This document shows positions 126 through 63,635 of a stretch of 64,000 bases of DNA, in pieces; position 1 is the first letter of the stretch; each line of letters begins with the position of its first letter. A program made the position numbers and the translations under genes. Source of the stretch: a virus; IMG/VR virus record IMGVR_UViG_3300027575_000001, positions 1 through 64,000 of that record; one strand, written 5' to 3'. Below the pieces are notes generated by a model. It ran no database searches. It saw only the letters and a program-made list of their open reading frames with translations, and was not told where the DNA came from.

Positions 126-308
126 TTAGCTGAAAAGATTTTGCTGAGTGTCCCCCGGAGGTTCTTCTTTCTTCGCAGGACTCGGCTTCTCGTAACAAGT
201 GAGGCAATATTGGCGCCTACCATCTGCTATTCGCCACGGCGTCATCTTCCCGCAGCGGTTGCACCAGATTTCAGCTTGAACTGTCGTCTTCGTGAAGTGA
301 TGAGGCAT
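126..308 (-). CDS. small Zn-ribbon protein, hypothetical
   Basis: 60-aa ORF with CNRCG...CLTC cysteine pairs, in series with neighbouring minus-strand genes. Confidence 0.5.
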   Translation of the reverse strand: MPHHFTKTTVQAEIWCNRCGKMTPWRIADGRRQYCLTCYEKPSPAKKEEPPGDTQQNLFS

Positions 309-582
309 CTGGTTTCCTAGCGCTTTGCAATGGTCGTCCGCCGCAGTTGTGAGATTTCACGTGGCAGTCGCCACACCCCGTGTCCACGTTATCGATAACA
401 TCCGATCCGCCAGCGCCGCGGGACTTTCGGTGCATCATGTGTCCTGATGCCCACGACACCGGACGGCCACAATGGATGCAGCACCAGCCGTCTCGCGTGA
501 AACACTGCCGGCGCAGCGCAGCCAGCGCCTCACCCTTGAGCCGTATCCTACCGGTCTTGCCAACAACTCCAGAGCGGATCAT
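271..582 (-). CDS. HNH endonuclease
   Basis: CIHCG...GHMMHRKSRGAGGSDVIDNVDTGCGDCHVKSH is an HNH/Cys-box pattern. The ATG overlaps the DnaB stop (ATGA). Confidence 0.7.
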   Translation of the reverse strand: MIRSGVVGKTGRIRLKGEALAALRRQCFTRDGWCCIHCGRPVSWASGHMMHRKSRGAGGSDVIDNVDTGCGDCHVKSHNCGGRPLQSARKPDASSLHEDDSSS

Positions 583-1928
583 TGGTGCCAGTCCTTCAGT
601 TCATCATCAAGCTCTGCTTGTGTCACGAACTCAAGTCTCTTTGTGTCGAATTCGCCGTCGATATTCCCCGGTGATCCTCCTCCGCGCACCAGTGCCAGGT
701 GGACGTTGGCCTTTTTCGTCATTTTCAGTGTCTCTTTGTCCTGATACCTGTGCAGGAGGATCATGGCCGCGCAGTCCTGCAAGGGCTTTTTGCTCTCCCC
801 GATGTCGGCAGGACGCGGCAACTTGTCAGCGTATTCCCGCGGCACTTCGTTTAGCTGGAACAGCGCCAGTAGAGCTGCTTTCTTGCCGTAAATCTTCCGT
901 CTCAGCCTGCCGGAGTCCAACACGTAGCTCTCCCGGATCTTGTTCGGATTGTTTTTGCCAGCTTCGACCATAAGCCCAAAGTGATCCAGCACAAAGAGCA
1001 CTTCCTCACCATCTCGCGTCTCGCGCTCGATGATCCAGCAGGTCTCGTCGCAGTCGATGTCACCCTCGTAGATGCGCAGTGGCCATTCCAGCACTTTGCC
1101 CATCCCCTCGTTGAATAGCTGATTTTGCTCAGGCGTTTGTAGCTCCTGTCGGACGCACACGATGTTGGGCAGGTTTACGACGTGCGGCACCAGATTGTAG
1201 AGCGACATTTCGCGGTCAACTTCGAGTGAAATCTTGACGACTCGCCGGCCGCGCTGGCAGTTATAGGCGATCGCCGTATCCCCGAAGGCTGACTTCCCGA
1301 CCTTCGGGCGCGCCGCAACGATGGTGTAATAGCCGTGAAGGATGCCGCCAATTTTGGAGTCGATCCACGCGTTGCCGGTTGGGATGCGTGGAGCTTGCTT
1401 AGTTTGAAAGCGGCGGTTGGCTCTTTCCAGTGCCTCCATAAAGAAGCTGTCTACCGCGGCGTTCTTGGCTCCGATAGGGATCCCAATAGATTCTAGCCTT
1501 GACTGGATGGTACCGAGCACCCCGAGGGCGTCGATGCTCTGGTCTGCCGCCTCTCGAATACCGCTTGAGCATGCTTCTATGATCCTCCGGAGCATCGATT
1601 TGTCGTTCACGATGCGGATGTAGTCTTCGATGACAGGGCGGCGGGGCAAGCCCTCAGTGAGTGACGCGAGGTAGGCTACGCCGCCGACAGCTTCGACTTC
1701 ATGACGGTTTTTCAGATGGTTTGCCAGCGTCCTGATATCGATCGCGCTGCCCGCAGCCGCCAGGCGCTTCATGGCCATGCGGATGCGCAGGTGCGAGTCC
1801 AAGCTCCACGCTTCTTTGGGGATCAGCGAGACCTCATCCCAGGCGGCATTGTCGAGCAGCACAGCTCCGAGGAGCGTCTTCTCGCACTCAACGTTCGCTG
1901 GCAGTTCGAAGTCGGGCGCAGGACTCAC
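579..1928 (-). CDS. dnaB: DnaB-like replicative DNA helicase
   Basis: N-terminal ECEKTLLGAVLLDNAAWDEV (DnaB N-domain pattern) and Walker A ARPKVGKSAF. Start set at the GTG at 1928, which overlaps the upstream stop (GTGA), giving 449 aa. The longer ORF to 2165 overlaps the upstream gene. Confidence 0.85.
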   Translation of the reverse strand: MSPAPDFELPANVECEKTLLGAVLLDNAAWDEVSLIPKEAWSLDSHLRIRMAMKRLAAAGSAIDIRTLANHLKNRHEVEAVGGVAYLASLTEGLPRRPVIEDYIRIVNDKSMLRRIIEACSSGIREAADQSIDALGVLGTIQSRLESIGIPIGAKNAAVDSFFMEALERANRRFQTKQAPRIPTGNAWIDSKIGGILHGYYTIVAARPKVGKSAFGDTAIAYNCQRGRRVVKISLEVDREMSLYNLVPHVVNLPNIVCVRQELQTPEQNQLFNEGMGKVLEWPLRIYEGDIDCDETCWIIERETRDGEEVLFVLDHFGLMVEAGKNNPNKIRESYVLDSGRLRRKIYGKKAALLALFQLNEVPREYADKLPRPADIGESKKPLQDCAAMILLHRYQDKETLKMTKKANVHLALVRGGGSPGNIDGEFDTKRLEFVTQAELDDELKDWHQ

Positions 1929-2445: not shown

Positions 2446-2794
2446 TTTTCCTCCCGTTCGGTTTCTGCCACTCGGCAGGATCGTCGTAAAAGCGGTCTTG
2501 ATGAAACCACGTCGCAGGGTGAGGACGAAAGTCCTGCGTGGGGTCTTGAGGCTTCTGGCCGGCAGGACTCGCAGCGTACTCCGCAGCTTTTTTCCACAGG
2601 AAGCGGCGTGCGGCGACGGGATCTGTGACTGTCCTGTTGAATCGGTCTCCATTCGCTAAATCAACTGTGGTTTCTGTGACGGTGGCGGCTACACGCTGAA
2701 TCGCCTTCTCTATTTCTTTGAACGCTTTGCGCTTCCCAACCTTGCGGGGATAGGCGTCGTAGATTGCTTCAATTTGTTCTGATTCTGTGAGCAT
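2351..2794 (-). CDS. conserved phage hypothetical protein (replication-module)
   Basis: 147-aa ORF with GAGGGAAT RBS and the motifs YDAYPRKVGKRKAF ... HPATWFHQDRFYDD. Its 3' end overlaps the next gene by 95 nt in another frame. Confidence 0.5.
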   Translation of the reverse strand: MLTESEQIEAIYDAYPRKVGKRKAFKEIEKAIQRVAATVTETTVDLANGDRFNRTVTDPVAARRFLWKKAAEYAASPAGQKPQDPTQDFRPHPATWFHQDRFYDDPAEWQKPNGRKNGKTANVTAAEGIARVNAKVADLGRNPIQPR

Positions 2795-2921: not shown

Positions 2922-2953
2922 GACAGGACCCCGACCGCCATCAGAGTCCTGTC
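2922..2953. repeat. perfect 8-bp inverted repeat GACAGGAC-N16-GTCCTGTC built from two copies of the abundant motif core
   Basis: Read directly. Intergenic, 3' of the minus-strand gene that ends at 2978. Confidence 0.8.
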
Positions 2954-4300: not shown

Positions 4301-4861
4301 TCAGAAGTTGTCGGGTAGCTCAGAATAATACTCCGAGTCCTGCGTCTTTGGCGCTTTGGGGGTGTCTTTCTTCAATCGTTCGAGTTCGGCCATCAGGCCG
4401 CGTGACCTGGCTGCGGCCGCTGCAAGTTTGTTTGCTTTCTCCAGCCGCGACAGGACATCCTGACGTGCCAGTGGGTGAATCGTATCGAGATAAGCCAGCA
4501 GGTCTTTGTATTCCTGAACTGACAGCGATCCCTTGCGGTCGTTGTCCTGGGCGCACGGGTAGTCGATGTTATCGAGTCCCGTTGAGCCAGCCCGGCTCAA
4601 TGCGGTTCCATGGTCGACGTCGACTTCAGACAGCGTAAACCACCGCGAGCAGTACCGGCACTGGATCGGTGCGTCCTCCTTGCCACCCATCACGTTGTCG
4701 AGCAGGTCGCGCCTGAACTCTTCGAGCGTGAACGCAGGACGCGGAAGGCCTTTCCTCTCCAACCGCGCGACCATTCCCCGGTAGCGGTTCCCGGTGATCG
4801 TCATGAAAGACGAATGGGCGTCCTGGGGGAACAGACTGCCGGCTTTGAGATTAGGCTTCAC
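4301..4861 (-). CDS. HNH-family nuclease
   Basis: CRYCSRWF...VDVDHGTALSRAGSTGLDNIDYPCAQDNDRKG is an HNH-like core. Start placed at the GTG overlapping the Lar stop (GTGA). An ATG at 4804 is an alternative. Confidence 0.55.
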   Translation of the reverse strand: MKPNLKAGSLFPQDAHSSFMTITGNRYRGMVARLERKGLPRPAFTLEEFRRDLLDNVMGGKEDAPIQCRYCSRWFTLSEVDVDHGTALSRAGSTGLDNIDYPCAQDNDRKGSLSVQEYKDLLAYLDTIHPLARQDVLSRLEKANKLAAAAARSRGLMAELERLKKDTPKAPKTQDSEYYSELPDNF

Positions 4862-9142: not shown

Positions 9143-11046
9143 AACCGTTGGACCTTTCCATCCTGCACCCTGAAGTACGCCACGCCGGCCCGGCTCGGGA
9201 CGGTCTCGCGGTTGTCGGCAAGGATAATGAATGCCTTTTCGAGCAGCCCCTCTTTGCACATCCCGTCGATGGCCTTGAACAGCATCTTGCGCTGATCGTC
9301 GATCATGGTCTGAACCTCATCGATCGCCACGATCTTGAGTTTGGAGTGTACCGCGATCGCGCACTGAAGGGCCGCCTTGAACATCAGCAGCTCGAAGCCC
9401 GAGAGTTGTTTGGTTGGCAGCCAACCTTTCGGCGTGAGCACCGTGAACGCATCGGCCTCGGGTGAGAGCTGGCCCTCGTAGTCCCACTTCGACAGGACGC
9501 TATTTACCGTGGCCATGAACGTTGCGGCTCCCTGCGCAATCAAATCGGCTTTCACCCCATTGTCTCCGAAGTAGGAGCACAGAGTCTCAAGATCAGCAAC
9601 CTTTGCCGTCTGGTCCTGTTTCCGCACCACAGCCTCATCGATCTGTTTCAGCGTCGACTCGTAGTTGAGCGCAGGACTCAGCCGTGCTTCCCAGGTACTT
9701 AGCTCGGCGTTCGCTGCGTCGAGGGCTGTTGTATCTGCTGGCGCGCTCTCCTGCGCTTTGGCCTCGTCGAGCGCGATGCTGGCGCTGTCCACGGCCTGCT
9801 CCGTCTGCGAGATGGTCTGCTCCAATTCCTCGACACGCCGCTTCGTCTTCTCGTGCTTCTCGTGAAGTTCGGCGTTCTTGGCGAGGATCTGCTCGGCACT
9901 GGTGATGTCGCCCAAGGCTTGCTGTTCGGCTTGGAGCCCGGCCTTTGCTTCCTCCGCTTCCTGCTGGAGCTTCAAATGCTGAGCCATTTTGCCGTCGATG
10001 AACTTGCGCGTTATGGTCTGCGTGCAGGTGGGGCAGTGAGCTTCGCTCATTCCGTCCTGCAGCAACTCGCGGTACACGTCTTGGGCATCAGCCTGCGCCG
10101 CAATCTCGGCGTCGAGTTCGCGGATCTGCGCCTGCAACTGCTCCCACAGATTCCTGCCCGCGGCCGTGCGGTCTGCCTTCTTCACGTTTGGCTGGTCAAG
10201 GATGGCCTGAGCGAGATCGTCGCGCTGGTGGATCGCTGTCGCATAGTCGGCCTGCGCTGTCGTCAACTTCTCTTTCTCCTGCTCTAAACTCTGCTCGATG
10301 CGCCCGATCTGAACCGTGCCGCCGCCCTTGATCTTCTTGGCTTCAGCTGCAGCGCGTTTCCGGCAGGCCTCAATCTTCTCCTGCACGTGTCCTGCGGCGT
10401 ACTCCGGCTTGAGGGGCTGCTGCGGGATGTAGATGCCACTGAGTGCTGCCTTGGCGTCCCTGCGCGCGCTGTAGGCCGCTCCGTACACCTGGTCGATCAG
10501 GCCGACAGGACTCTTGTCCCATGCGAACTTGCCCAAGTGCTTCTCGGCTAGAGCTACCTTGTCGGCCTCGAATTCGTGGCTGGAAGGAAGGATCAGCGCG
10601 GCCAAGATGTCTTTCTGCTCTGTCTTCGGATTGAAGAAATAGTCCGAGTCCAGCACGCACGACAGCGCTTCGGACTTTCTTTCGAGGAATGCTTGGAAAC
10701 CGGCTGCTCCTTTGCCGTCGTCTTTGCCTTCGCCGGCCACGATGGTTTGGTTCCTGCGGCTGGCGCCAGGCCCGTAGGTGGTCCTTATCTGGAATGGTCC
10801 TGCGGCCGTCAAGACGCCGAGAACGATGTCGGCCTTCTTGGCGCCTAGCCGGATGTTCTCCATCGCCCCGCCGCCTTTCTTGTCGGTGTTAGGGCACCGC
10901 GGCGTCAAGGAGAGGCGGATCGCGTTGATGAGGGTGGTCTTGCCCTGGGCGTTATTCCCGATGACGCAGCACAGAGGCTCGTCGAATGTTACTTCAGCCT
11001 GCTCGATAGGACCAAAATCCTTGATGCTGATTGTGTTCAAATCCAT
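9139..11046 (-). CDS. SMC/SbcC/RecF-like AAA ATPase (recombination or repair)
   Basis: FGPIEQAEVTFDEPLCCVIGNNAQGKTTL is an SMC_N-type Walker A. A long coiled-coil middle is followed by C-terminal KIVAIDEVQ (Walker B). Start at the ATG at 11046. Confidence 0.75.
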   Translation of the reverse strand: MDLNTISIKDFGPIEQAEVTFDEPLCCVIGNNAQGKTTLINAIRLSLTPRCPNTDKKGGGAMENIRLGAKKADIVLGVLTAAGPFQIRTTYGPGASRRNQTIVAGEGKDDGKGAAGFQAFLERKSEALSCVLDSDYFFNPKTEQKDILAALILPSSHEFEADKVALAEKHLGKFAWDKSPVGLIDQVYGAAYSARRDAKAALSGIYIPQQPLKPEYAAGHVQEKIEACRKRAAAEAKKIKGGGTVQIGRIEQSLEQEKEKLTTAQADYATAIHQRDDLAQAILDQPNVKKADRTAAGRNLWEQLQAQIRELDAEIAAQADAQDVYRELLQDGMSEAHCPTCTQTITRKFIDGKMAQHLKLQQEAEEAKAGLQAEQQALGDITSAEQILAKNAELHEKHEKTKRRVEELEQTISQTEQAVDSASIALDEAKAQESAPADTTALDAANAELSTWEARLSPALNYESTLKQIDEAVVRKQDQTAKVADLETLCSYFGDNGVKADLIAQGAATFMATVNSVLSKWDYEGQLSPEADAFTVLTPKGWLPTKQLSGFELLMFKAALQCAIAVHSKLKIVAIDEVQTMIDDQRKMLFKAIDGMCKEGLLEKAFIILADNRETVPSRAGVAYFRVQDGKVQRL

Positions 11047-50156: not shown

Positions 50157-51683
50157 GTGGCGCTTTTCAGCCAAGACGACGATAGCGAAGACGAGACCCC
50201 CGAGATGGGCTCTGCGTTCTCTGGCGGGCAAGAGCCAAGCGATCCAGACGAAGTTTCCGAGAGTCCTGTGCCCGAAGCGGCTGACCAGGCAGATGAGCCT
50301 GAACCTGCTGCCCCGGATGACGCTAACGCCTACGCGCAGTCGCCCGATGACCCCGGCGCGCAGGAAGAGCCGACCGGCGAGGAGCCGTTTCCCGGGCAAG
50401 ATCAGAGCGCCGATTACGTGGCTCCCGAATCAGAATCCGCGCAGGACTCAGGGAGCGGCCCAGTTCAACTTCCCGCAATGCCTCAGTACGTCGACAATCT
50501 GCCGAATTATCAGGCGCTCGAAAAAGAAATCGCCAACTTCAAGCCGAGCGACTACAAGCCGTCGATAGGACGCAGAATCGCCGCAGCCCTGAGTGGAGGA
50601 GCAGTAGCTTTCGGGAGCCGTAACCCCGAGGCTGGATTGCGGGTAGCGAATCAGGTAAACGATGCGCCGCTGAACCGCGCGCGCGCCGCCGAGCAGCAAA
50701 CGGAGCAGGGAACGCGCCAGCAGATCGCCGACGTAAACGCGCAGAATCAGACACGCCAGGCGGTTTATCAGAATCAGCGCGTAGCAGCGAATGATGCGGC
50801 GTTGAATACCGAGAGGCAACAACGTGGTGAGGATTATGCGGCCCACGCGGTCGTGCGGGACGCGACGATTGTCCCCCAGAGCATGCGTCCTGTCGATCCT
50901 AAGAATCCTCTGGGGGAATGGCAGGGAACTGACGTCAAAGGGCGTCCGGCGACCAACCTTGCTCCTCCGGCGCAGTTCCTCAACTCTCCGGCTGGTAAAG
51001 CAGCTCAAGCCGAGAAAACCATCAGCGATGCGCGCGCAGCAGGACACCCATTCACTCCAGAGCAGGAGCAAGTCGTTCGCTCTGGTGGTCATCTGACCGT
51101 CAGGAACCCGACAAATATTCGGGTGCCTAGCGCCGAATCAGACATGTACAGGGACGCGAGGGAGACTTTCAAATCTCAACATGGCCGCTATCCCCAGACA
51201 ACGGCCGAGGAAAATGAGGTCACGCAGACGGCCCGAGGCACGCTTAAAGATGGCGCTACTGCGGCGCAGGATATTGTGGACGCTGCCAATGGCCAGAAGG
51301 AATCTTACGCGCAACAGTTTACCCGGAACCAAGACGGGACTTATACCAACATCTCAACCGGGGCGATCATTCCGGGCCAGGAATTCAACGCGAAGATTGA
51401 TGGATTCAGAACCGCGGCCAACGTGCGTCTACAGAAACAGGGCTATCAAATCGACCCGCAGGGAAATTTTGATCCCATCGGGCAGTCTTCCAATGGTCAG
51501 CCAGCGCAGCAGCAAGCGGCTCCGCAGCAACAGCAACCAGCCGCGCCTCCCACGGGGGCTCAGCAGGGCAAGACGCAATCGGGCCAGTCGGTCAAGGTCG
51601 GGGACCCGATCACCTATAACGGCAAAACCGGTATCATCGCAGGATTCACGCGGCAAGGGAAGATCATTCCCAAATGGAACTAA
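50157..51683 (+). CDS. internal virion protein candidate
   Basis: 508-aa ORF with a GTG start, an acidic N-terminus and a Gln-rich tail. Abuts the giant gene. Confidence 0.55.
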   Translation: MALFSQDDDSEDETPEMGSAFSGGQEPSDPDEVSESPVPEAADQADEPEPAAPDDANAYAQSPDDPGAQEEPTGEEPFPGQDQSADYVAPESESAQDSGSGPVQLPAMPQYVDNLPNYQALEKEIANFKPSDYKPSIGRRIAAALSGGAVAFGSRNPEAGLRVANQVNDAPLNRARAAEQQTEQGTRQQIADVNAQNQTRQAVYQNQRVAANDAALNTERQQRGEDYAAHAVVRDATIVPQSMRPVDPKNPLGEWQGTDVKGRPATNLAPPAQFLNSPAGKAAQAEKTISDARAAGHPFTPEQEQVVRSGGHLTVRNPTNIRVPSAESDMYRDARETFKSQHGRYPQTTAEENEVTQTARGTLKDGATAAQDIVDAANGQKESYAQQFTRNQDGTYTNISTGAIIPGQEFNAKIDGFRTAANVRLQKQGYQIDPQGNFDPIGQSSNGQPAQQQAAPQQQQPAAPPTGAQQGKTQSGQSVKVGDPITYNGKTGIIAGFTRQGKIIPKWN

Positions 51684-57600: not shown

Positions 57601-60600
57601 ATCAGACCGGCGTAGGAAAGGGCCGCGTAGCAGCAGCCATGATCCGCTGGGCGGAACTTCACAGCCATACGCCCGTTTTTGTCACTGAAAGTGCGCCCCT
57701 ATTCTCGCCGATGTACGCGGACCTGCAGGACATTGGCTCGGGGCAGACGATCTCTCCGCTGCTCTTCAACGCAGACGCTTCGATCACTGATGCGAGGACC
57801 GGAAGCAAAATCTTCCAGAATCCCGGCGCCATGCGTCCTGTGCTCGACAGGATTCGAGAGACGGGCGAGTTGCCGAAGGGACGCAACGCCGTCTTTCTTA
57901 CCTACTCGCAAATCAATACCGACAACCGACAACAGTTGACGCTTCAGCGGATCGCCGAGAACGCGGTATTCGTCCTCGACGAGAGCCACAACGCAGGGGG
58001 CGATTCGAATACGGGCAATTTCCTCTCCGAGTTGCTGACAGGATCAAAAGGTGTTGTCTTCCTGTCGGCTACCTGGGCCAAGCGTCCTGACAATCTGCCG
58101 CTCTACGCGGGGAAGACGGACATCTCGATCGCCATTCCTGATCGAGCCAAAGTTGCCGACGCAATCATGGCCGGCGGTGCACCGCTGCAAGCCGTCCTCA
58201 CAAGCCTGCTGGCTGAGACTGGCCAGTTTGTGAGGCGCGAGCGCTCTTTCGACGGGATTGAAATTAAGAATCTCGTGGACGAGGCGAACAAGGCCGAGGA
58301 CACGCGGATCTCTGACAAGGTGACTGAAGTCCTGCGCGCCATCGTGAAAGCCGACTCGATGTACCACAACCTCGATTTTGAGCGGATTAAGGCGCAAGCC
58401 ATGACACGCGGCGGTGGTGCACAGAGCAAAGTGCAGCCGATTCAGCATATGGAGTTCTCGTCTGTCGTTCACAACATGGTGAAGCAACTCCTGCTAGCGC
58501 TTAAGGCAGATACGGCCGCAGACGAAATCATTGCGTCCATCCAGCGCGGCGAAAAGCCAGTGTTCGCGCTCGAAAACACGATGGGCGCATTCCTCGACAG
58601 CTACATCGGTGGTCACAACCTGAAAGAAGGTGATTCCCTCAAAGACCTGGATTATTCGAGGATTAGCGATCGCGCCCTGATGCGCACTCGCTATTACAAC
58701 GAGACCGATGTGCAGGGCAACAAAACCCGCGTTGAGGTTCCGTTGGATGACCTGAGCGCGCCGGTGCGCGAGGCCTACGATGAGGCCCAGGCCCTGATCG
58801 ACAATCTGAAAGTTGATCTTCCCGTTTCGCCCATCGACTACATCAGGAACAAAGTCGAGAAGGCCGGATACAAGATTGCGGAGATTACCGGCCGCACCGC
58901 GAGAATCGACTACAGCGGCGACACTCCGAAGCTCGGCACGGTTCCAGGCATTGAGAAAAAAGATCGCGTCAACACGGCGACTCAATTCAACAACGGCGGT
59001 CTGGACGCGCTGATTATCAACCGCGCCGGATCGACCGGCATCTCTCTCCACGCTTCCGAGAAGTTCCGCGACCAACGCCCGCGGCACATGATTATCGGCC
59101 AGCCTGCCGGGGACGTCAACATCGTCATGCAGATTCTCGGCCGCGTCAACAGGACCGGCCAACTCGTTCTCCCGCGGTACACATTCCTCGCTGTGGCGCT
59201 CCCGGCTGAGATGCGTCCGGCGATCAACCTCGCAAAGAAGATGAAGTCGCTGAACGCGAACGTTTCGAGCAATACCCGCGCGGCGACATCGATTCAGGCC
59301 GTAGACCTGATGAACAAATATGGCGACAGGACCGTAGGGCAGTACCTCTTTGATAATCCCGAGATGAGCCGGTTGCTAGGCCTGAGCGCGGATACTAACG
59401 AGAAGGGAGAGCCCGGCGCGAACGAGGGCCTGGCGATGAAGGCGACCGGCCATTCGGCGTTGCTGCCTGTAGTTCAGCAGCAGGAGTTCATGGATTCAAT
59501 CTCGGAGGCGTACACAAACTACATCGACTTCCTCGACGAGACCGGCCAGAACGATCTTGAGCCACGGACCTATGACTACTCGGCGCGCGAACTCGACAGC
59601 AAGCGGATGTATCAGGGAACAGATTCGAGTTCGCCATTCGGACAGGACGCGACCTACGGCGAGTACTCGATCAAACGCCAGGGCAAGCCGTTTACCCCCG
59701 AAGAGGTCATGCAGCGGATCGCTGACACGTCTGGGCAAGAGGCAATGAAACTTGCACCCCATGAGCGCGATACGCTTGCAGCCCGCGCGTTGGCCGCTCA
59801 CTTCGAGGAACTCTACACGCCCTATTACGCAGGACTCGTGGCAGCCAGTTCGATGGAGCGCGCACAGCAGATGCGCACCCGCGGCCGTCAACTCCTGAAC
59901 GACTACCGGGTGGGAACCGGAGTTCGCATTGAGATCAATGGCGAGTCCTACAACGGCGTCGTGACTAATATCGAGGGAGCAAAAAAGCCCTCTGGAAATC
60001 CCTATGCCCCGAGTTCGCTGCAATTCACCATCGCCGTGAACAGCGGCCTACGGCAGACCAAGGTTCCCGGCTCGCAGATGGACGCGCTGGTCACGTCGAA
60101 CCTCGGGCGCAATGCTGACGTGCGCCAACTCTTCAAGGATTACGGCAGCGACCGGCAGAAGGCCAAGATCATCACCGGAAACCTCTTGGGCGCGTTCGGT
60201 GAATTAAAGCAGGGCGCAAAAGGCAGGATTATTAGCTTTACGATGGAGGACGGAACATCGAAGCTGGGCATCCTCATGCCGTCGAAATTCGACATCAACA
60301 CCGATGTTGAGGGAACCTACGCCATGCGCACGCCCGAGGGTGCTGAGAAGTTCCTCGAGGAGAACGGCTCATATCTCCAGAGCAGCGGATCGGAGATCGG
60401 GGTTTTCGGTCCTACCAATTCACGGGACGAAATGGAGATCAGGACCAAGATGTCGAAGGCGGCATCTGGCAAGTTCTTCCTGGATCCCAAACTGCTCGAA
60501 ACCGTGCAGGGCGGCGAGTTCGCGTCGAGCAGCGGCTTGATGAAAGCCACGGTGAAGGAAGGTCACGAACTGGATGCGCTCAAGGCCATCATGGGCAAGA

Positions 60601-63374
60601 TCGCGCTCTACGCATCGCCGTCTCACGTCGACCAGGCGCGGACTATAGACGAGAAAGCAAAAGCCGATCTCGATAAGCCAAAGCCGCCGCGGCGCGCGAC
60701 AGGATCCACAACGATGTCGTTCCTCGGCACCGGCGCTCTCGACCCCTACGTCACGAGGGTTCTGCAGCCGGTTGTGGACTATGCCAAGAAAGCGGTCGTG
60801 AGCACATGGAAGGAAGCCACAACCGCCGTGAAACGGGCCGGCCAGAGCGGAAAAGCTATGGGGTGGGAAGTGGCCAATACCTTGTTCCCCACCGTGGGCG
60901 TCGATAAGGACGCGCAGGACATCATGGGCAAAGCTCTCGGAGAACCTGCTCTTCGTCTATTCGAAGCCGGGCAATTCCTGCACAGCGTTAATCAGATGTT
61001 CGAACGGATGGAACCCGATGGGCCAGATGGATGGATCGAGTTTGTAGATCGCTGGCAGACCGGCAAAGAGCAGCCTACGCAGGACCTAGAGCAAGCCCAG
61101 CAGTTCATGCAAGAGGTCATGAGCCAGCAGCGCATGCGGGAGAAGGTCGCCGTCAACCTGGGAAAGAAGAAGAGCACCCAAGTCGAACTGAGTGATAAGT
61201 CGAATTATTTCCCGAATCGCTACAAAGTCGCTCCGGGCGGCGAGAAGACGCTGACAGAGGATCAGCAGATCGCGCGTCTCGGCCAGGTGTCCCGCCGGCC
61301 GTTCGAAGGCTCGAAGGCGTTCATGAAGCAGCAGCGTTACACCCTGAAGCAAGCCGTTGAAGAGGGTGCAGTTCCCTTGGGGAATCCTGTCGCGATGCTG
61401 CTGCGGCGTTTGCAGGAGGGTGCGAAATTCGTTGCGGCCCTGTATGCCTGGTACAACTTCAAGGATCAGGGCCTTGCGATGTTCCTGAAAAACGGGAAAA
61501 AGTTGCCCAAGGACTTTAGCTTTGTCGACGACAAGAGCGGCAACGTGTGGCGCGTCGTTGAGGCCGTCGACGGAAATACCTACCCAATTCAAACCGGCCG
61601 CTGGGCGATCCAAAAGGATGCGGCGCGGCTGCTCAATAACTACCTGAGTATCGATCACATCGCTGGCAGTGAGGTTCTCAGTGCGTTCGTCAAGTTGAAG
61701 AATTTCTCGACGGAAATGAAACTTGCAATCTCGGCTTTCCATTGGGCCTACATCACGATCGAGAATATGGCCTCCGGCCTTAACCTTGGGATGGACAAAG
61801 TAATCAACCAAGGTATTCGCGCGCTGGACCCGACCAAAGTGTCGGCAGGACTCGCGGATATTGCGAAGTCGATTGTGGCTCCCTATACGGCAATCAAGCG
61901 CGGTGGCGAGATCATCCAGTACGCTCGGAACCCTGATGAGTTCCTCGAGTCACCCGAGGGCAAGAAATTCGCCGAGCGTTACCCCGATTTCCCGCACCTT
62001 ATGGAGCTGCTTTTCGCCGGCGGCCTGCGGTGGAACATTGCCAGCCAGTTCCAGCAGTCATTCGGAGATCACTGCCTCGACGCCTGGAAGAATGGCGAGA
62101 TCGGCAAAGGCATCGGCAAATTCCTGCCCTGGCTCTCCCACGGGATCATGAGCCCGCTGTTCAGCCACTACATCCCGCGGTCGAAGTGGGCGTTTGCGGT
62201 TGAGCTCCTATCGACCAAGCTCGCACAGTACAGTCAGGCCATCGCGGACGGCGACAAGACCGAGGAAGAGATCGCGCGCGAAGTTGCACAGACCACGGAC
62301 AACCGCTTTGGCGAACTCAATTGGGACTCTCTCTACCTCAACAACGACCTCAAGGGAGCACTTCAATTCTTCTTCCGGTCGGCAACCTGGGCCATTGGCT
62401 CCTGGCGCGGTGCCTACCAGGCGGTCAAAGAGCAGGCCAGTTCAAAGATGTTTGACGACAAAATGTTCCAGCACTTCGATGCGCAAGCCAAAAAGGGAGA
62501 TTGGATCAGCCAAGCCCGGCGCGCCACATCCCGGCTCCCCCAGCTCGGAGTCAACGCTGGCTGGATCTTGTCGATGGCGCTTTTGACGAGTACCTTGGGC
62601 AGCGTAACCGAGAAACTGGCGACAGACAAATATCCGTGGGATTGGGCGCAGCAGGACTCGAAGACCAACGGATTATCACCAGAAGCCAACTCGGCCCTCG
62701 AAGCGATGCACCCGCGCACCGGTGCGCTGGATGAGCACGGCGAGCCGGTCAGAGTCTCGTGGCCGACAGGACTCAAAGATTACGAGCATGGCTTTGAGAG
62801 TCCTGGCCGCTACGCCAAAGGCAAAGTCTCTGACGTCGCCGTGAACGCCTGGGATACCTTCGTTCAGAATCGGGATGCTTTCGGTGACTACGTTTGGAAT
62901 CCCAATGACCCGTTCTACAAAGAGATGTGGCAGGGGCTCAAGTACAACGCCGTTGGCGATCTCACGCCGATGTCGGCCGACAACTGGATGCGCCCCTACG
63001 GCCCGCAGGACACGGCCAGCAAAGCCGAGCGATTCACTGGTATGATCGGCGGCGCACCGCCGGCTCTCGATCGCTCCCACGCGCTTACAGAAGCGCTGGC
63101 GCGGCGTGCAGTCTCTGATCCCCACACCCCGCTGACTCCCGAGCAGCAGGCGGAAAGGGACTATGCCAAGGATCATCCTACGGTGCACAGCGTCCGGCAG
63201 GCGGCGCGCGAGAAGAACCTCACCTACCTCGACCGAGTTTTCAAGGAACTCAACTATACTGACGCTAAGGCGATCTACGACGATCCGAAAACGACAGCGG
63301 CCGAACGGCAGGAGCTTAAGCCCCTGTTGGACAAGAAGCGGATCGACGCTATCCGGTCTGCCAGAAGGAAATAA
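51684..63374 (+). CDS. 3896-aa polyvalent protein (2H phosphoesterase, N6-adenine MTase, strawberry-notch/SNF2-like helicase, ~1400-aa C-terminal region with hydrophobic segments)
   Basis: A single uninterrupted ORF. The domain motifs are listed as separate features below. Confidence 0.85.
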   Translation: MATTPIQLSDSDLDSGSQQAPAQPVSLSSSDIDPQSQPGPVNPYSDAAMVGTAPREGFWHSLGATFGMTPEAAQAQRDEFTRHPVRSTIEDIGGPAVSGAEGLYRGFMRTTDEAGQAVTAAQQGNPYSAAEHAAYALPFVGEGIKRGVEQLGPDGEVTPASVGTALGTAIQTAPMLTGGGEAVKTIETPGEVLPPPGELPPPSSPPPTPPTIEGGGAGGSAPESLQLGGGRGGVATATRTQTTQAPTVIPAKLPLAATLPPELEALQARASQATDAAHAAGQELLKAQRAQRAAQAAGEPVQPIDPELVQRAQYLRAQAQDLNTTAMRTSEEWRKGPSQWEADPAGRQTTVPSPAEVGADYVAKVKSGIPPQIAAAGLGMTRQDQETVHVAAFFTPSAVATAAASNKQPVAPQQTAPTPPPQSPNPVAMQQQAQQATIAETAAQAQGIKAKADDIAMGIPPPKPPQVPMPAGMDQGALTQDTVNLAGSVIMRLPAMQRPVAIRESVGNLANWMLATRTVVAPDGTVVNVDSQKTAQTEAVNVINNEIGRQNELIKAQHDAQQDAAKERQESAQQAQEERDEAIRPTETAKKSTGNAEPVEIPDTPATQKAAVALARAPMDATSEQLDALIRRTATVTMPVRKAMVEREIQRRANRQEDHNQAGMMGEPIPPGQSREELQRWADAVKKGEHPFIHVPANVAWKPAGVEDLTRTPVKGAGTFSGTYYHAKEIEAADIRKAARDKKNPQGELDKLVAKFKGEASPVELKDEDVAQVHKYGNTQADIPDNSDAGRALAALRQTISPADLMGEGLVKDAHITVRYGIDGTDTAGIRAYLEKQAPFQATLGKTTAFPPSEHSDGAAPIVVAVEAADLRRMEKELDQHGKFVERSFPDYKPHATVAYVKPEAAKKYTGLATAEGKTFTVSSVSISKQDGSIEEIAFKGRSPVVTSEAPKGEQPANKPEMKAAEPETKRGEVGMMLAPGETVLTVTGRKTTPFPRVDTSTNGKATNTVKRVDQWLMDNAILEAQSRHDEFNLRQFQQNSQKPSPADKDSAEMYLFDKDSVQPIPKPFLKPLPAPAAKAITALVDEQASQDPTATLDSVLRDKDTGHFVAQALVNDGILTSSAENVNPRNALLTTSARAKVGDALLGELLPAEVIEQTPDFLKQKLLGTMGSIKAIAGAEDGWNLKPHIVAAAERYDQIFRGLDTHEQGPVVEAILKKLDEPIDKMRQAFSSFAVAATNHDPSDKPFFDFNLAFGTELTQEQYEKGLKLVEKAAKGEPVKVSQHTSEMALMRADSTPMLDIHHEPTGWLKVEHDNGTVLVHPHENTMIYFTSKDRRSGTEAMRAKAEAQAYAIDNPVAPKPTGPAGELIVKPLFQQQEAKPLAKGDRVTYRTNKGKERTGEVAWTDGKKVRIADNGSTVNKNIEDVSPVKAASAEESKGEPTGEATLVDALQLKFEHGAGPKDYNGLKKIVTEFDGKEPDQLRMKEAQEAYEAMLNRVASEIITSQAKNFGASTSGNQRVFERLVGLYQGQPNLAIRTSTSIGNQAYSTPLPLAFVADRFAGVDWHSTVYEPTAGNGALLIAANPEKTAANELDPARAQTLKDEGFNVESHDATVWTPNNRYDAVVANPPFGNLPGPVKVDGYNIVKLDHLIAAKALGVMKDAGKAAIILGAGSREEAGEVTNAARPFFNWLYAHYNVVSDFELEGDLYSRQGAAWPVRVIAIDGRVRSAKVSPVADTIPRLKTWEEVYDKAAEYLGSNLEGQRPAGNVAGGAVRAESPDTGAIPGTVAGRNQPADRGESSAGPAGPRSDGGTKLQPGPIQHSGRVPDPGVGTTDSTVRPNGDVARSDRLAEGEPPARVVRRQSAEPDGHPANALSPIDTIVDESNQFQSSYRPHSAKKDVAVMAPKALIGPMQQAMDRVAEEAGDIDEWVTNELGYPDVKTMHEAFMGIQTDAIAAAIHQMQRGKAIVVGDQTGVGKGRVAAAMIRWAELHSHTPVFVTESAPLFSPMYADLQDIGSGQTISPLLFNADASITDARTGSKIFQNPGAMRPVLDRIRETGELPKGRNAVFLTYSQINTDNRQQLTLQRIAENAVFVLDESHNAGGDSNTGNFLSELLTGSKGVVFLSATWAKRPDNLPLYAGKTDISIAIPDRAKVADAIMAGGAPLQAVLTSLLAETGQFVRRERSFDGIEIKNLVDEANKAEDTRISDKVTEVLRAIVKADSMYHNLDFERIKAQAMTRGGGAQSKVQPIQHMEFSSVVHNMVKQLLLALKADTAADEIIASIQRGEKPVFALENTMGAFLDSYIGGHNLKEGDSLKDLDYSRISDRALMRTRYYNETDVQGNKTRVEVPLDDLSAPVREAYDEAQALIDNLKVDLPVSPIDYIRNKVEKAGYKIAEITGRTARIDYSGDTPKLGTVPGIEKKDRVNTATQFNNGGLDALIINRAGSTGISLHASEKFRDQRPRHMIIGQPAGDVNIVMQILGRVNRTGQLVLPRYTFLAVALPAEMRPAINLAKKMKSLNANVSSNTRAATSIQAVDLMNKYGDRTVGQYLFDNPEMSRLLGLSADTNEKGEPGANEGLAMKATGHSALLPVVQQQEFMDSISEAYTNYIDFLDETGQNDLEPRTYDYSARELDSKRMYQGTDSSSPFGQDATYGEYSIKRQGKPFTPEEVMQRIADTSGQEAMKLAPHERDTLAARALAAHFEELYTPYYAGLVAASSMERAQQMRTRGRQLLNDYRVGTGVRIEINGESYNGVVTNIEGAKKPSGNPYAPSSLQFTIAVNSGLRQTKVPGSQMDALVTSNLGRNADVRQLFKDYGSDRQKAKIITGNLLGAFGELKQGAKGRIISFTMEDGTSKLGILMPSKFDINTDVEGTYAMRTPEGAEKFLEENGSYLQSSGSEIGVFGPTNSRDEMEIRTKMSKAASGKFFLDPKLLETVQGGEFASSSGLMKATVKEGHELDALKAIMGKIALYASPSHVDQARTIDEKAKADLDKPKPPRRATGSTTMSFLGTGALDPYVTRVLQPVVDYAKKAVVSTWKEATTAVKRAGQSGKAMGWEVANTLFPTVGVDKDAQDIMGKALGEPALRLFEAGQFLHSVNQMFERMEPDGPDGWIEFVDRWQTGKEQPTQDLEQAQQFMQEVMSQQRMREKVAVNLGKKKSTQVELSDKSNYFPNRYKVAPGGEKTLTEDQQIARLGQVSRRPFEGSKAFMKQQRYTLKQAVEEGAVPLGNPVAMLLRRLQEGAKFVAALYAWYNFKDQGLAMFLKNGKKLPKDFSFVDDKSGNVWRVVEAVDGNTYPIQTGRWAIQKDAARLLNNYLSIDHIAGSEVLSAFVKLKNFSTEMKLAISAFHWAYITIENMASGLNLGMDKVINQGIRALDPTKVSAGLADIAKSIVAPYTAIKRGGEIIQYARNPDEFLESPEGKKFAERYPDFPHLMELLFAGGLRWNIASQFQQSFGDHCLDAWKNGEIGKGIGKFLPWLSHGIMSPLFSHYIPRSKWAFAVELLSTKLAQYSQAIADGDKTEEEIAREVAQTTDNRFGELNWDSLYLNNDLKGALQFFFRSATWAIGSWRGAYQAVKEQASSKMFDDKMFQHFDAQAKKGDWISQARRATSRLPQLGVNAGWILSMALLTSTLGSVTEKLATDKYPWDWAQQDSKTNGLSPEANSALEAMHPRTGALDEHGEPVRVSWPTGLKDYEHGFESPGRYAKGKVSDVAVNAWDTFVQNRDAFGDYVWNPNDPFYKEMWQGLKYNAVGDLTPMSADNWMRPYGPQDTASKAERFTGMIGGAPPALDRSHALTEALARRAVSDPHTPLTPEQQAERDYAKDHPTVHSVRQAAREKNLTYLDRVFKELNYTDAKAIYDDPKTTAAERQELKPLLDKKRIDAIRSARRK
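54050..54560 (+). other. 2H phosphoesterase (LigT/Acb1-fold) domain of the giant protein
   Basis: Two HxT motifs about 80 aa apart: DAHITVRYG (His at about aa 815) and KPHATVAYV (His at about aa 895). Confidence 0.65.
56300..56960 (+). other. gamma-class N6-adenine DNA methyltransferase domain of the giant protein
   Basis: Motif I YEPTAGNGALL (about aa 1572) and motif IV VVANPPFGN (about aa 1629). Confidence 0.75.
57530..59190 (+). other. strawberry-notch-like SF2 helicase domain of the giant protein
   Basis: Walker A GDQTGVGKGR (about aa 1979), DExH VLDESHNAGG (about aa 2099), FLSATWA, NRAGSTGISLHAS and QILGRVNRTGQ (motif VI). Confidence 0.75.
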
Positions 63375-63377
63375 CTG

Positions 63378-63635
63378 ATGACCGTGTGGGCTCAACAGGC
63401 TTTCGATCACGTCCGGCAGGTTGCGCGCAGGAAGAATCTCTTCACGACAGATGACGTGATGGAATCGATGGGCGACATTCCATGTACGGTCGATCGGCAC
63501 GTCATGGGCTCTGTGATGAATCGAGCAGCAGGACTCGGGATCATCCAGAAGACCGATACCTTCGTTCCATGTAAACGCAGAAATCAGCACGGTAGCCCTC
63601 GCCGCGTGTGGAAATCCTTGGAGATAGCAGGATGA
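63378..63635 (+). CDS. hypothetical protein
   Basis: 85-aa ORF. Confidence 0.5.
   Translation: MTVWAQQAFDHVRQVARRKNLFTTDDVMESMGDIPCTVDRHVMGSVMNRAAGLGIIQKTDTFVPCKRRNQHGSPRRVWKSLEIAG

Follow-up and report, generated by a model that had tools for sequence, protein, structure and literature searches.

A selected, strand-biased octamer as a candidate signal for a DNA-reading enzyme in uncultured soil phages

Introduction

Most of what is known about hyperabundant oriented DNA words such as Chi, KOPS, and uptake sequences comes from bacterial chromosomes, and each of them revealed a machine that tracks along DNA. The genome of IMGVR_UViG_3300027575_000001, an uncultured forest-soil phage, raises the question of whether a virus may carry a word of this kind, as the initial annotation described the octamer CAGGACTC as hyperabundant and oriented by DNA strand. 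Here, we ask whether this excess exceeds chance and coding effects, whether it is maintained among related phages, and what may read it.

The genome is circular and 68,297 bp long, and the circular assembly (genome scale 68.3 kb) was recovered in four independent assemblies. The window refers to the whole stretch analyzed, namely positions 1–64,000 of this record. The lineage that bears the motif is an uncultured family of HK97-fold soil phages with genomes of 64–72 kb. In the window, a minus-strand block at 1–16 kb forms a replication and recombination module that includes DnaB, an exonuclease, and an SbcC-like ATPase. The gene at 18826–20541 encodes a HerA/DUF87 P-loop ATPase, and a core gene of the family encodes a virion-delivered SNF2-type helicase protein of 3896 aa (Table 1).

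Abundance and placement of the octamer

Exact counting gave 33 copies of CAGGACTC on the plus strand and 12 on the minus strand of the window (Table 1), with no position of the initial annotation missed or false. Its counts of 100 CAGGAC and 64 GTCCTG on the plus strand were also exact, as was the purine that precedes 32 of the 33 plus-strand copies (G in 23, A in 9, and T in one). The whole circular genome of 68,297 bp contains 35 and 14 copies, respectively. Dinucleotide-preserving shuffles of the window, with both strands counted together, yielded 2.68 ± 1.76 matches and a maximum of 10, compared with 45 observed. CAGGACTC was the strongest 8-mer outlier of the genome, with observed/expected ratios (O/E) of about 23 on the plus strand and about 13 on the minus strand under a first-order Markov model. 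The reverse orientation is enriched in its own right by about 10- to 13-fold; under the same model, the complement GAGTCCTG was found 14 times on the plus strand versus 1.1 expected. The overall enrichment is about 20-fold (O/E about 19–23), and the density is 0.72 per kb, or approximately one copy per 1.4 kb.

Synonymous or within-gene permutation of codons left 4–6 copies on the plus strand and about 3 on the minus strand (counts that include five intergenic copies held fixed), compared with 35 and 14 observed. Amino acid sequence and codon usage fail to account for the excess. In the whole genome, 44 of the 49 copies are located inside genes, and the density of intergenic copies is at least equal to that of coding copies. 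The copies at 2944 and 37089 are intergenic as initially annotated, whereas the one at 43098, also listed as such, is inside a called minus-strand gene. Inside genes, the two reading frames proposed earlier were recovered, with xCA-GGA-CTC in 19 of 26 sense copies and AGT-CCT-Gxx in 17 of 18 antisense copies. The former encodes 18 of the 35 [A/T]-G-L tripeptides (about 1% expected) and G-AGT-CCT-G encodes 17 of the 49 S-P-[AVGDE] tripeptides (0.6% expected). The octamer entered coding sequences through point substitutions, in the two frames least costly to proteins. It has altered codon choice, and even peptide content, throughout the core genome, and it is kept by selection despite its cost in rare codons.

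The motif takes the form R-CAGGACTC, in which the CAGGA core is strict and the 3' part is graded, C-[T>C>G>A]-C. The variants CAGGACCC, CAGGACGC, and CAGGACAC occur 5 to 9 times as often as expected, and all three break GANTC. The flanks hold no information beyond position -1, and no link between the sites and insertions or deletions was found. The spacing of copies is near-random (coefficient of variation 1.08), with a mean of about 2 kb on the favored plus strand.

Table 1. Location, coding context, and conservation of each CAGGACTC copy in the window.
Position	Strand	Placement	Gene	Codons or peptide	Remarks
176..183	+	antisense	126-308 (minus strand)	AGT-CCT-GCG (S-P-A)	
1919..1926	+	antisense	DnaB-like, 579-1928 (minus strand)	S-P-A	
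2563..2570	+	intergenic			
2944..2951	-	intergenic			16 nt from GTGCTACTCT promoter-like element; kept in L021
3615..3622	+	intergenic			adjoins GCGCTACTCT element
4335..4342	-	sense	HNH, 4301-4861 (minus strand)	CAG-GAC-TCG (Q-D-S)	
9672..9679	+	antisense	SbcC-like, 9139-11046 (minus strand)	S-P-A	kept in L021
10506..10513	+	antisense	SbcC-like, 9139-11046 (minus strand)	S-P-V	kept in L021
11782..11789	+	antisense	exonuclease, 11297-12616 (minus strand)	S-P-A	kept in L021
12792..12799	+	antisense	12745-14013	S-P-A	kept in L021
13221..13228	+	antisense	12745-14013	S-P-A	
15878..15885	+	antisense	15762-16085	S-P-A	
18489..18496	+	sense	18196-18504	D-R-T-R	rare frame
20676..20683	+	sense	20597-20944	GCA-GGA-CTC (A-G-L)	
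22738..22745	-	antisense	22643-22912	S-P-V	
23096..23103	-	antisense	22935-27530	S-P-V	conserved N-terminal part of gene; kept in L010
31345..31352	+	sense	31224-31562	A-G-L	kept in 5/6 aligned relatives
32096..32103	-	antisense	32034-34457	S-P-A	kept in 5/6 aligned relatives
32742..32749	+	sense	32034-34457	Q-D-S	common only to closest relatives
32797..32804	+	sense	32034-34457	A-G-L	common only to closest relatives
35629..35636	-	intergenic			kept in 4/4 aligned relatives
35937..35944	+	sense	35699-37042	A-G-L	first of pair, 9 nt start-to-start
35946..35953	+	sense	35699-37042	S-G-L	second of pair with 35937
37089..37096	+	intergenic			upstream of capsid gene; CAGGACCC or CAGGACTC at site in relatives
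38837..38844	+	sense	38467-39360	T-G-L	kept in L010, L018
40147..40154	+	sense	39438-40175	A-G-L	kept in 4/5 aligned relatives
41505..41512	-	antisense	41465-42190	G-V-L	rare frame
43098..43105	+	antisense	42199-43107 (minus strand)	S-P-A	start of gene; 14 nt upstream of GTGCTACTCT element
44857..44864	+	sense	44478-47240	T-G-L	kept in 4/4 aligned relatives
47444..47451	+	sense	47346-49091		rare frame
47906..47913	-	antisense	47346-49091	S-P-A	
47986..47993	+	sense	47346-49091	T-G-L	kept in L019
49381..49388	+	sense	49101-49544	A-G-L	
49993..50000	+	sense	49569-50144	A-G-L	
50261..50268	-	antisense	50157-51683	S-P-V	
50442..50449	+	sense	50157-51683	Q-D-S	
52739..52746	-	antisense	3896-aa protein, 51684-63374	S-P-A	
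53963..53970	-	antisense	3896-aa protein	S-P-V	
54412..54419	+	sense	3896-aa protein	T-G-L	
59830..59837	+	sense	3896-aa protein	A-G-L	kept in L019, L020
61846..61853	+	sense	3896-aa protein	A-G-L	kept in L019, L020
62652..62659	+	sense	3896-aa protein	Q-D-S	
62767..62774	+	sense	3896-aa protein	T-G-L	kept in L019, L020; inverted pair with 62798
62798..62805	-	antisense	3896-aa protein	S-P-G	
63529..63536	+	sense	63378-63635	A-G-L	

Strand asymmetry

In the whole genome, 71% of the copies are on the plus strand (35:14; binomial p = 0.004), and this bias holds evenly around the genome irrespective of gene direction. Genes on the plus strand carry 23 plus and 9 minus copies, those on the minus strand carry 9 and 3, and the sense/antisense ratio is unequal between the two gene arms (Fisher p = 0.007). 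The relatives have a weaker bias in the same direction (126:82, or 61% plus), which again tracks the DNA strand. The earlier claim that orientation follows the DNA strand rather than the gene is thus borne out in both gene arms and in the relatives. No GC skew able to explain the bias was found. The strand bias of CAGGACTC is real and moderate.

Conservation and turnover among related phages

Among the sites that could be aligned, 46 of 88 are kept in relatives, compared with 13.2 expected at the same codon phase (3.5-fold). A further 33 sites are present in relatives only, indicating turnover. The roughly 20-fold excess extends to related phages, and CAGGACTC is their top 8-mer down to 52–57% GroEL identity. 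On a deeper branch, only the shorter GCAGGA is enriched in L266 and nothing is enriched in L265. Deep-branching relatives, one of which is temperate, lack the motif; either the host or a phage protein could differ in them. Genes acquired recently have few copies, indicating that the motif accumulates slowly in resident DNA. A scan of all IMG/VR for close pairs of GCAGGACTC, for which the per-genome sensitivity is low, found dispersed excess in a single contig, and this contig belongs to the same phage family.

The shuffles, the two unrelated frames, the intergenic copies, and the conservation agree with the general claim of the initial annotation that this is a DNA-level signal rather than a codon or peptide preference. 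R-CAGGACTC is a recognition word in the DNA itself, maintained by selection. Taken together with the gene-independent strand lean, the excess and the selection indicate that it is probably a signal for a DNA-reading enzyme.

Comparison with known short DNA words

Several known systems share features with CAGGACTC. The stoperators of cluster A mycobacteriophages are 13-bp sites, mostly intergenic and oriented with transcription. They resemble CAGGACTC in that tens of copies of an asymmetric site are dispersed over a phage genome, but CAGGACTC occurs mostly inside genes and follows the DNA strand rather than transcription in both gene arms, and repressor sites of this type were rejected. The uptake sequences USS (Pasteurellaceae) and DUS (Neisseria) occur at about one per kb in tolerated frames, affect peptides, and have enriched near-consensus variants, all of which apply to CAGGACTC. 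In contrast to these sequences, CAGGACTC is found in a phage genome, is strand-biased, lacks a flanking consensus, and is absent from acquired genes. The combination expected of USS/DUS, namely no strand preference with extended flanks or inverted pairs, was not observed, which speaks against this class. The EcoP15I sites (CAGCAG) of T7 and the nick sites of T5 and phiKMV-like phages are asymmetric words that also prefer one strand over a whole phage genome. However, they have complete or near-complete strand exclusivity at far fewer sites, and the bias of the T7 EcoP15I sites coincides with the single direction of transcription, whereas the bias of CAGGACTC is partial and independent of transcription. 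One-strand nick sites, for which all sites are expected on the same strand, are a poor match given the 29% of copies on the other strand.

For HIP1 of cyanobacteria (GCGATCGC), one report (PMC5861425) describes a hyperabundant octamer, 15- to 300-fold over-represented, that is maintained by selection and has a function still unknown. CAGGACTC shares the high abundance and the maintenance by selection. As a palindrome, HIP1 reads the same on both strands, whereas CAGGACTC is asymmetric and strand-biased; an octamer that is not its own reverse complement does not belong to the HIP1 type.

KOPS/SRS guide FtsK/SpoIIIE, and TRS are 8-bp repeats bound by the TraB translocase of Streptomyces plasmids. 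CAGGACTC is a similarly asymmetric 8-bp word, and its orientation could steer a DNA motor. However, KOPS has a skew of about 90% and one copy per 16–40 kb (PMC3384302), compared with a skew of 71% in this genome and 61% in the relatives, a far higher density, and a reverse orientation that is enriched instead of unfavored. The initial annotation had proposed a KOPS-like guide for the ATPase encoded at 18826–20541. This proposal is not supported, given the low skew and the distribution of the gene: no HerA/DUF87 ATPase homolog turned up in the relatives fetched, among them the motif-rich L010, L011/L267, and L018, which span the syntenic region. The gene carries no CAGGACTC copy, and Pfam detected no winged-helix domain in its product, contrary to the winged-helix repeats annotated earlier. 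A KOPS/SRS guide calls for a skew of about 90% or more and a cognate winged-helix (gamma-domain) FtsK-family motor co-occurring with the motif, neither of which was observed.

Candidate readers of the octamer

Our tentative best guess is that CAGGACTC may be a Chi-like signal for an end-processing nuclease. Chi sequences, such as GCTGGTGG of E. coli, regulate RecBCD/AddAB and are enriched in phages that lack nuclease inhibitors. For CAGGACTC, the reader would be an enzyme that enters at a DNA end, travels along the molecule, and scans a single strand. On meeting the word, a host helicase-nuclease of the RecBCD/AddAB class would stop degrading the DNA and become harmless or recombinogenic. Should the genome be circularly permuted or concatemeric, ends could arise in any region, and copies in both orientations would be required throughout. 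Rolling-circle replication and one-way packaging would repeatedly expose one end orientation, which would account for the surplus on one strand; in phage lambda, Chi activity depends on orientation relative to cos. The very high density would halt the nuclease within about 1–2 kb. Such a role is compatible with the enrichment of both orientations with one favored, the even distribution over a circularly assembling genome, the graded enrichment of single-base variants (expected of partly active sites), and the motif-poor acquired genes. It is also compatible with the gene content, in which no nuclease inhibitor was recognized alongside the phage's own exonuclease and SbcC-like recombination module. 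Similar to Chi, CAGGACTC is a short asymmetric word that is over-represented in coding DNA and strand-biased, and its use would depend on orientation relative to free-ended DNA. A Chi site would be expected in excess in the host core genome, with a skew to the leading strand; the genome and metagenome pattern matches listed were only random hits or microsatellites.

Several observations argue against a Chi-like role. The bias is even around the genome, without the switch at an origin that Chi has, and amounts to only 61% across the relatives. CAGGACTC is also unlike, and unrelated to, any Chi sequence known to us. The enrichment and density are above the modest values expected of a Chi site: compared with E. 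coli Chi (O/E 2.3–2.4 and 0.2 per kb; PMC3784561), the enrichment is roughly ten-fold and the density three- to four-fold higher in this phage. The lack of the motif in deep-branching relatives is a further point against it. Moreover, the single family contig recovered by the IMG/VR pair scan is explained no less well by a reader that the phage encodes.

It is nearly as likely that the reader is one of the phage family's own proteins, for which CAGGACTC would serve as a binding or guide word. Such a protein would mark and handle the DNA of the phage, possibly directionally. Examples would be a DNA translocase guided or loaded by the word, a protein that packages or condenses DNA, and the virion-delivered SNF2-type helicase protein, which is encoded by a family core gene. 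The motif is a property of the family, the only contig found by the pair scan is a family member, and acquired genes lack it. The restriction of L266 to GCAGGA, with nothing in L265, looks like a specificity that evolves within the lineage, and a strict core with a graded 3' part resembles the energy profile of protein-DNA binding. However, no gene restricted to motif-rich members emerged from the partial genomes of relatives, the obvious HerA/DUF87 candidate is missing from the motif-rich ones, and a strict KOPS-type guide would call for a much higher skew (PMC3384302) and would be impaired by the enriched reverse copies. It is possible, if rather doubtful, that CAGGACTC is a polar "self" word in almost every core gene, read by the phage's own protein in a virus-owned guide system instead of being a borrowed host signal. 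The reader, for example the 3896-aa helicase protein or another conserved protein, would then act directionally on phage DNA by loading onto it, drawing it in, protecting it, or packaging it, and its specificity would have shifted from GCAGGA to R-CAGGACTC during the evolution of the family.

Other explanations

Replication offers another explanation, in which lagging-strand synthesis is preferentially primed at the copies and, under one-way or rolling-circle replication, its template would usually be the same strand. DnaG-type primases use the template trinucleotide CTG, the T7-type site is GTC, and Okazaki fragments are about 2 kb. The complement 5'-GAGTCCTG-3' ends in CTG and contains GTC, the mean spacing on the favored strand equals the Okazaki fragment size, the bias is even and independent of gene direction, and the phage has its own DnaB-type helicase. 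We nevertheless consider priming unlikely, as the spacing is random rather than regular, no primase or DNA polymerase was recognized in the genome, and the primases known to us read 3 bases rather than 8–9. Modification or strand-specific nicking of CAGGACTC by a phage methyltransferase, HNH, or radical-SAM protein is quite unlikely. The genome encodes one confirmed methyltransferase (34381–35463; N6/N4 type), three HNH proteins, and one radical-SAM protein, relatives have Dam, Mom, and PAPS-reductase-type genes, and the motif contains GACTC, a GANTC site. However, enrichment is not required of a modification target, and the GANTC methylation target suggested earlier is not supported by the counts. 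GANTC words on the plus strand (GAATC 100, GACTC 77, GAGTC 59, and GATTC 69) occur about as often as expected or less, GACTC is slightly rarer than expected when copies within the motif are set aside (87 vs. 105), and the GANTC-breaking variants are enriched. Motif-rich relatives do not consistently carry the methyltransferase or the small HNH gene; the former is lacking at the syntenic position in L009, L010, L011, L013, and L018. Nicking is a poor fit to the copies on the other strand, some of which are 31 nt from an opposite copy, since the phage nick sites known to us occur on one strand only.

If the phage merely mirrored a host signature akin to uptake signals or HIP1, this would explain the density of about 0.7 per kb and the frame-restricted fit in coding sequences, which resemble uptake sequences. 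Such mirroring is very unlikely: at least 359 loci (2.7 Mb; genomes, viruses, and metagenomes) have a background of 0.04–0.05 per kb, and no motif-rich cellular contig with dispersed excess was found among at least 240 loci sampled from the matches listed. The initial suggestion of a host-shared uptake signal thus found no support among these matches, and acquired genes are motif-poor. The strand bias and the missing flanking consensus also argue against it, and a lytic-type phage would presumably be outside uptake-driven drive. Finally, it is extremely improbable that the excess is functionless and arises from repeated sequence or from a bias in codons, peptides, or mutation. The sub-words CAGGAC, AGGAC, and CAGGA have a gene-strand component that fits codon effects, but all shuffle controls, the two unrelated frames, the intergenic copies, and the above-background conservation speak against this explanation, as do the lack of flanking similarity and of an indel link.

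Implications

A comparable oriented word, enriched above Chi, is now found in an uncultured soil phage family. If a host nuclease reads it, these phages would pacify RecBCD/AddAB by signal saturation instead of enzyme inhibition, and CAGGACTC would be the first candidate Chi sequence for their soil host. With a phage protein as the reader, the word would represent a virus-owned guide or self-marking system. Either way, CAGGACTC provides a simple sequence marker by which metagenomes can be searched for members of this family and possibly for their host.

Abundance of the octamer

Direct counting and a pattern search agree on 33 copies of CAGGACTC on the + strand of the window and 12 copies of its complement GAGTCCTG, and every coordinate listed in the initial annotation was reproduced, with none missed and none false. 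The hexamers CAGGAC and GTCCTG occur 100 and 64 times in the window, respectively, and the base before the + copies is a purine in 32 of 33 cases. Dinucleotide-preserving shuffles of the window gave 2.68 ± 1.76 matches on both strands (maximum 10) versus the 45 observed. A census covering every 8-mer ranks CAGGACTC as the most extreme outlier; relative to a first-order Markov model, it is 23-fold over-represented in the + orientation and about 13-fold in the reverse. The 9-mer and 10-mer lists are headed by GCAGGACTC (24 and 6 copies) and CGCAGGACTC (14 and 3 copies), respectively. On the 68,297-bp circle, the octamer has 35 + copies and 14 - copies, including five copies in the 4.1 kb of intergenic DNA. 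Apart from the purine at -1, the flanking bases are uninformative, and the copies are spaced almost at random (coefficient of variation 1.08), indicating that they are not pieces of a longer repeat; the lack of flanking signal also rules out a larger element or a secondary structure at these sites. A literature search on the word itself returned nothing relevant.

Codon usage was addressed with three shuffles, in which synonymous codons were exchanged genome-wide, synonymous codons were exchanged within genes, or codons were permuted within genes. All three produced 4–6 + copies and about 3 - copies (five of these being intergenic copies left unshuffled), far fewer than observed. CAGGACTC is a clear outlier against dinucleotide and codon shuffles alike, which bears out the proposal that the signal lies in the DNA rather than in codon or peptide preference. 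Inside genes, the octamer is almost confined to two unrelated readings, and these are the ones named in the initial annotation: xCA-GGA-CTC (Ala/Thr-Gly-Leu) in 19 of 26 sense copies and AGT-CCT-Gxx (Ser-Pro-Ala/Val) in 17 of 18 antisense copies. Both rely on minority codons (GGA, 24% of Gly; AGT, 9% of Ser; CCT, 19% of Pro). Among the [A/T]-G-L tripeptides of the proteome, 18 of 35 are spelled with the word (expected about 1%), as are 17 of 49 S-P-[AVGDE] tripeptides (expected 0.6%). The CAG-GAC-TCN (Gln-Asp-Ser) reading is used only four times, despite being predicted as the commonest by a hand estimate from codon usage; this scarcity fits selection for the DNA word, with copies located where the protein can accommodate them.

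The word tolerates no change at positions 1–5 (CAGGA). C is favoured at positions 6 and 8, with T also allowed at position 6, and the order of acceptance at position 7 is T > C > G > A. The variants CAGGACCC (15 and 7 copies), CAGGACGC (13 and 12), CAGGACAC (8 and 3), and CAGGATTC (9 and 6) all show 5- to 9-fold enrichment, which is still 3- to 4-fold when synonymous shuffles serve as the reference. Not counting the full word, CAGGA too is over-represented (323 observed vs. 217).

Genome and gene content

The window and the fetched locus L003 close a circle of 68,297 bp, with 5,077 bases past the junction identical to the window start. The 79 called genes cover 93% of the circle and form two blocks of opposite strand (see table); no tRNA genes were found. 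Four independent forest-soil metagenome assemblies encode the same proteins on contigs of 68,298–68,438 bp that begin at different points, and the genome assembles as a circle in all four; they derive from ERR1700721 / PRJEB8420, a North American timber-harvest soil survey (PMC5525643). Among 50,697 deposited phage genomes, megablast found no DNA-level match; in tblastn searches of the same genomes, the capsid and 807-aa proteins were unmatched and DnaB had distant matches only. An alignment-based model of the 412-aa protein (25 homologs, pLDDT 54) has structural matches that are all HK97-fold capsid proteins or encapsulins; the single-sequence model (pLDDT 31) was not usable. Taken together, the lack of a deposited match and the HK97-fold capsid model identify this as an uncultured tailed phage, and with no cultured relative among the deposited genomes, none could indicate a host. 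The best cellular matches of the phage GroEL, from Acidobacteriota, Geothermobacter, and Eisenbacteria, are 38% identical, which is too distant for host assignment.

The 3896-aa protein contains AAA_34, Helicase_C_4, and weak ResIII matches and is conserved across the phage family; its homolog in the related contig L266 additionally has a ParB-like domain. It is reminiscent of P1 DarB and of the giant proteins that podoviruses deliver from the virion. The accessory genes beside GroEL differ among the relatives L022, L024, and L266 and are of anti-defence or modification types (Acb2/Tad1-like, Tad2-like, Sequestin, Mom, Dam, and PAPS-reductase-type).

Coordinates of gene blocks, genes, and sequence elements (window positions unless another record is named)
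Feature	Coordinates	Strand	Remarks
Minus-strand block	genome 66197 through window start to window 16085	-	18 kb; GroEL/GroES, HNH proteins, DnaB-type helicase, radical-SAM protein, SbcC-like ATPase, PD-(D/E)XK exonuclease
Plus-strand block		+	50 kb; small genes, 1531-aa protein, structural genes, 3896-aa SNF2-type helicase protein
Segment outside the window	L003 22318-26614		4.3 kb; four + strand genes, GroEL, part of GroES
Small HNH gene	271-582		
Lar-type restriction-alleviation gene	4858-5052		
HerA/DUF87-type ATPase gene	18826-20541		
Hexamer-free stretch	23200-27530		0 CAGGAC or GTCCTG; about 12 expected at genome rate
Direct pair of octamer copies	35937-35953		9 nt apart; CAGGACTCTCAGGACTC
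412-aa protein gene	37156-38394		
3896-aa protein gene	51684-63374		
Inverted pair of octamer copies	62767-62805		31 nt apart; within the giant gene
(C)GTGCTACTCT	2968, 3604	-	intergenic, upstream of genes
(C)GTGCTACTCT	35531, 41451, 43120, 49551	+	intergenic, upstream of genes
Excisionase-type HTH gene and tyrosine integrase	L265 11677-13680		deep-branching relative

Strand asymmetry

The strand bias is moderate, with 71% of the copies in this genome on the + strand (binomial p = 0.004). Genes on the + strand contain 23 + and 9 - copies of the full 8-mer, and minus-strand genes contain 9 and 3, such that the ratio relative to the DNA strand is equal in both gene blocks and the sense/antisense ratio reverses between them (Fisher p = 0.007). 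Orientation therefore tracks the DNA strand and not the gene, as initially described. Sub-words shorter than the 8-mer show a gene-strand component. Compositional skew is excluded as the source of the bias, since there is almost no GC skew and the AT skew tracks gene direction. The strand ratio in synonymous shuffles (about 72 to 28) was not taken as a null, because the protein sequences already bear the footprint of the sites and such a null is circular; tests on the gene arms were used instead. In minus-strand genes, S-P-x tripeptides, which permit a + copy, occur at 2.7 times the amino-acid composition prediction, and x-G-L tripeptides are not enriched. The direction of the bias is thus visible in the proteome itself. 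For 16 related contigs combined, the counts are 126 to 82 (61% +), with + copies equaling or exceeding - copies in 15 of 16. In these relatives, antisense copies outnumber sense copies 29 to 14 in the replication block, and sense copies predominate in the structural block.

Another over-represented element, (C)GTGCTACTCT, points in the direction of the downstream gene at every copy in both blocks, for which reason it looks like a phage promoter element; the orientation of CAGGACTC, unlike that of this element, is not tied to the downstream gene. The kin words TACTCTTT and GGTACTCT head the 8-mer lists of relatives, and a CAGGACT-like word lies within about 25 nt of four of the six copies of (C)GTGCTACTCT.

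Conservation and turnover among related phages

Relatives were gathered via three phage proteins and GroEL homologs from many soil and peat metagenomes, and are partial or near-complete genomes of 64–72 kb phages; more than 80 proteins of the family's clade appear in the GroEL search by itself. The census in these phages, which the initial annotation had put forward as a check, places CAGGACTC as the top or near-top 8-mer in most relatives down to 52–57% GroEL identity, at 0.38–1.97 copies per kb. The density is 0.16 per kb in the contig L016 and 0.14 per kb in L266 (47% GroEL identity), and no copy is present in 21.6 kb of L265 (45% GroEL identity), which has an integrase. L265 is probably temperate, judging from its excisionase-type HTH gene and tyrosine integrase. 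L266 still has an excess of the shorter GCAGGA, with the same strand bias (41 to 15); the 3' extension C-T/C-C is confined to the motif-rich clade.

Of the 88 aligned sites, 46 are conserved, compared with an expectation of 13.2 for 8-mers matched in codon phase (70–80% nucleotide identity). A further 33 sites are present in relatives only, and at several of these at least four of the eight bases are different in this genome. The sites have no association with insertions or deletions and align without gaps, and an origin of the 9-mer as an insertion scar was rejected on the latter ground. These patterns indicate purifying selection on existing sites, with gain and loss ongoing.

Genes without homologs in the fetched relatives have about half the density of shared genes, both for the octamer (0.39 vs. 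0.76 per kb) and for the hexamer (1.47 vs. 2.74 per kb; p = 0.008), indicating that the word accumulates in DNA long resident in the lineage. Octamer-free genes include those of the HerA-like ATPase, the methyltransferase, and the radical-SAM protein. Octamer copies are likewise missing from the 4.4 kb of the 1531-aa gene that is not conserved; this protein has homologs in relatives for its first ~145 residues only, and the 4.4-kb part is probably a recently exchanged module.

Possible functions of the word

That a phage-encoded protein reads the word is a tentative explanation, nearly as likely as the Chi-like reading described below. The initial annotation had suggested a KOPS-like guide for the phage ATPase, which is indeed a HerA/DUF87-type P-loop protein (Pfam E = 5e-13, with weak matches to solved HerA structures); the winged-helix repeats attributed to it were not recovered, as Pfam finds no winged-helix domain. 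This guide is not supported, as no ATPase homolog occurs in any of the fetched relatives, including the motif-rich L010, L011/L267, and L018 that span the syntenic interval. Moreover, KOPS-type guides have about 90% skew and one copy per 16–40 kb (PMC3384302), whereas the phage word has 61–71% skew and one copy per 1.4 kb, and its reverse orientation is itself about 10-fold enriched. Among the partial genomes compared, no gene confined to motif-rich relatives was found; the nearest candidate, the small HNH gene, is absent from the motif-rich L020. That the copies are priming sites is unlikely, and a modification or nicking target is slightly less likely. GANTC methylation, as once proposed, conflicts with the variant spectrum and site counts: GANTC sites are not enriched as a class, and GACTC sites that are not part of the word are slightly fewer than expected (87 vs. 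105 ± 8). One of the two phage methyltransferases initially named was confirmed and the second was not, and several motif-rich relatives lack the confirmed gene at the corresponding syntenic position. Strand-specific nicking is a poor fit, since 29% of copies occupy the opposite strand. That the word is an artefact is very improbable.

A signature shared with the host is very unlikely. The genomes of 185,579 species were scanned for two CAGGACTC within 30 nt, giving at least 120 matches, and those listed are random pairs or (CAGGACT)n heptamer microsatellites from many phyla. A viral-contig scan with the same pattern and a metagenome scan for 9-mer pairs revealed background only among the matches listed. 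In the 2.7 Mb of sequence listed by the three scans together, the background is 0.04–0.05 extra sites per kb, with no cellular contig showing a dispersed excess. The complete IMG/VR scan for 9-mer pairs returned 95 stretches, and a single one shows dispersed excess, with 17 clusters in 14 kb; it is a member of the same phage family, and no other lineage emerged. Given the low sensitivity per genome, these negatives weigh only weakly against a host-shared word. The (CAGGACT)n arrays in MAGs (L057, L091, L107, L113, L134, L139, L028, L084, and others; Acidobacteriota, Planctomycetota, Cyanobacteria, Bacteroidota, and other phyla) are often mixed with (CAGCACT)n, (CAAGACT)n, or (CAGAACT)n; they are microsatellite-like and unrelated to the dispersed phage word. 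Two unrelated viruses have dispersed copies that may be due to chance, namely L164 (IMGVR_UViG_3300027923_001821; six copies on one strand in 13.5 kb, 49% GC) and L172 (IMGVR_UViG_3300038701_003462; seven clusters in 12 kb, 73% GC, partly tandem).

A Chi-like signal for a host end-processing nuclease is the likeliest single reading, though a tentative one, and is compatible with the observed pattern. Copies in both orientations would serve a genome whose ends can fall anywhere, and the surplus of one orientation would match the single end orientation arising from rolling-circle replication and one-way packaging. Phage lambda provides a precedent for an end orientation exposed in this manner. 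Partly active variants would account for the graded enrichment. Counting against a Chi-like role, the phage word is far above E. coli Chi (O/E 2.3–2.4 and 0.2 per kb; PMC3784561) in both enrichment and density.

The word resembles oriented over-represented words as a class (Chi, KOPS, uptake sequences, and HIP1) yet fails the defining tests of each where these are applicable, which places it in this general kind and in no single class. R-CAGGACTC is firmly established as a word of the DNA itself, under selection and with a moderate strand bias, that typifies a clade of uncultured soil phages.
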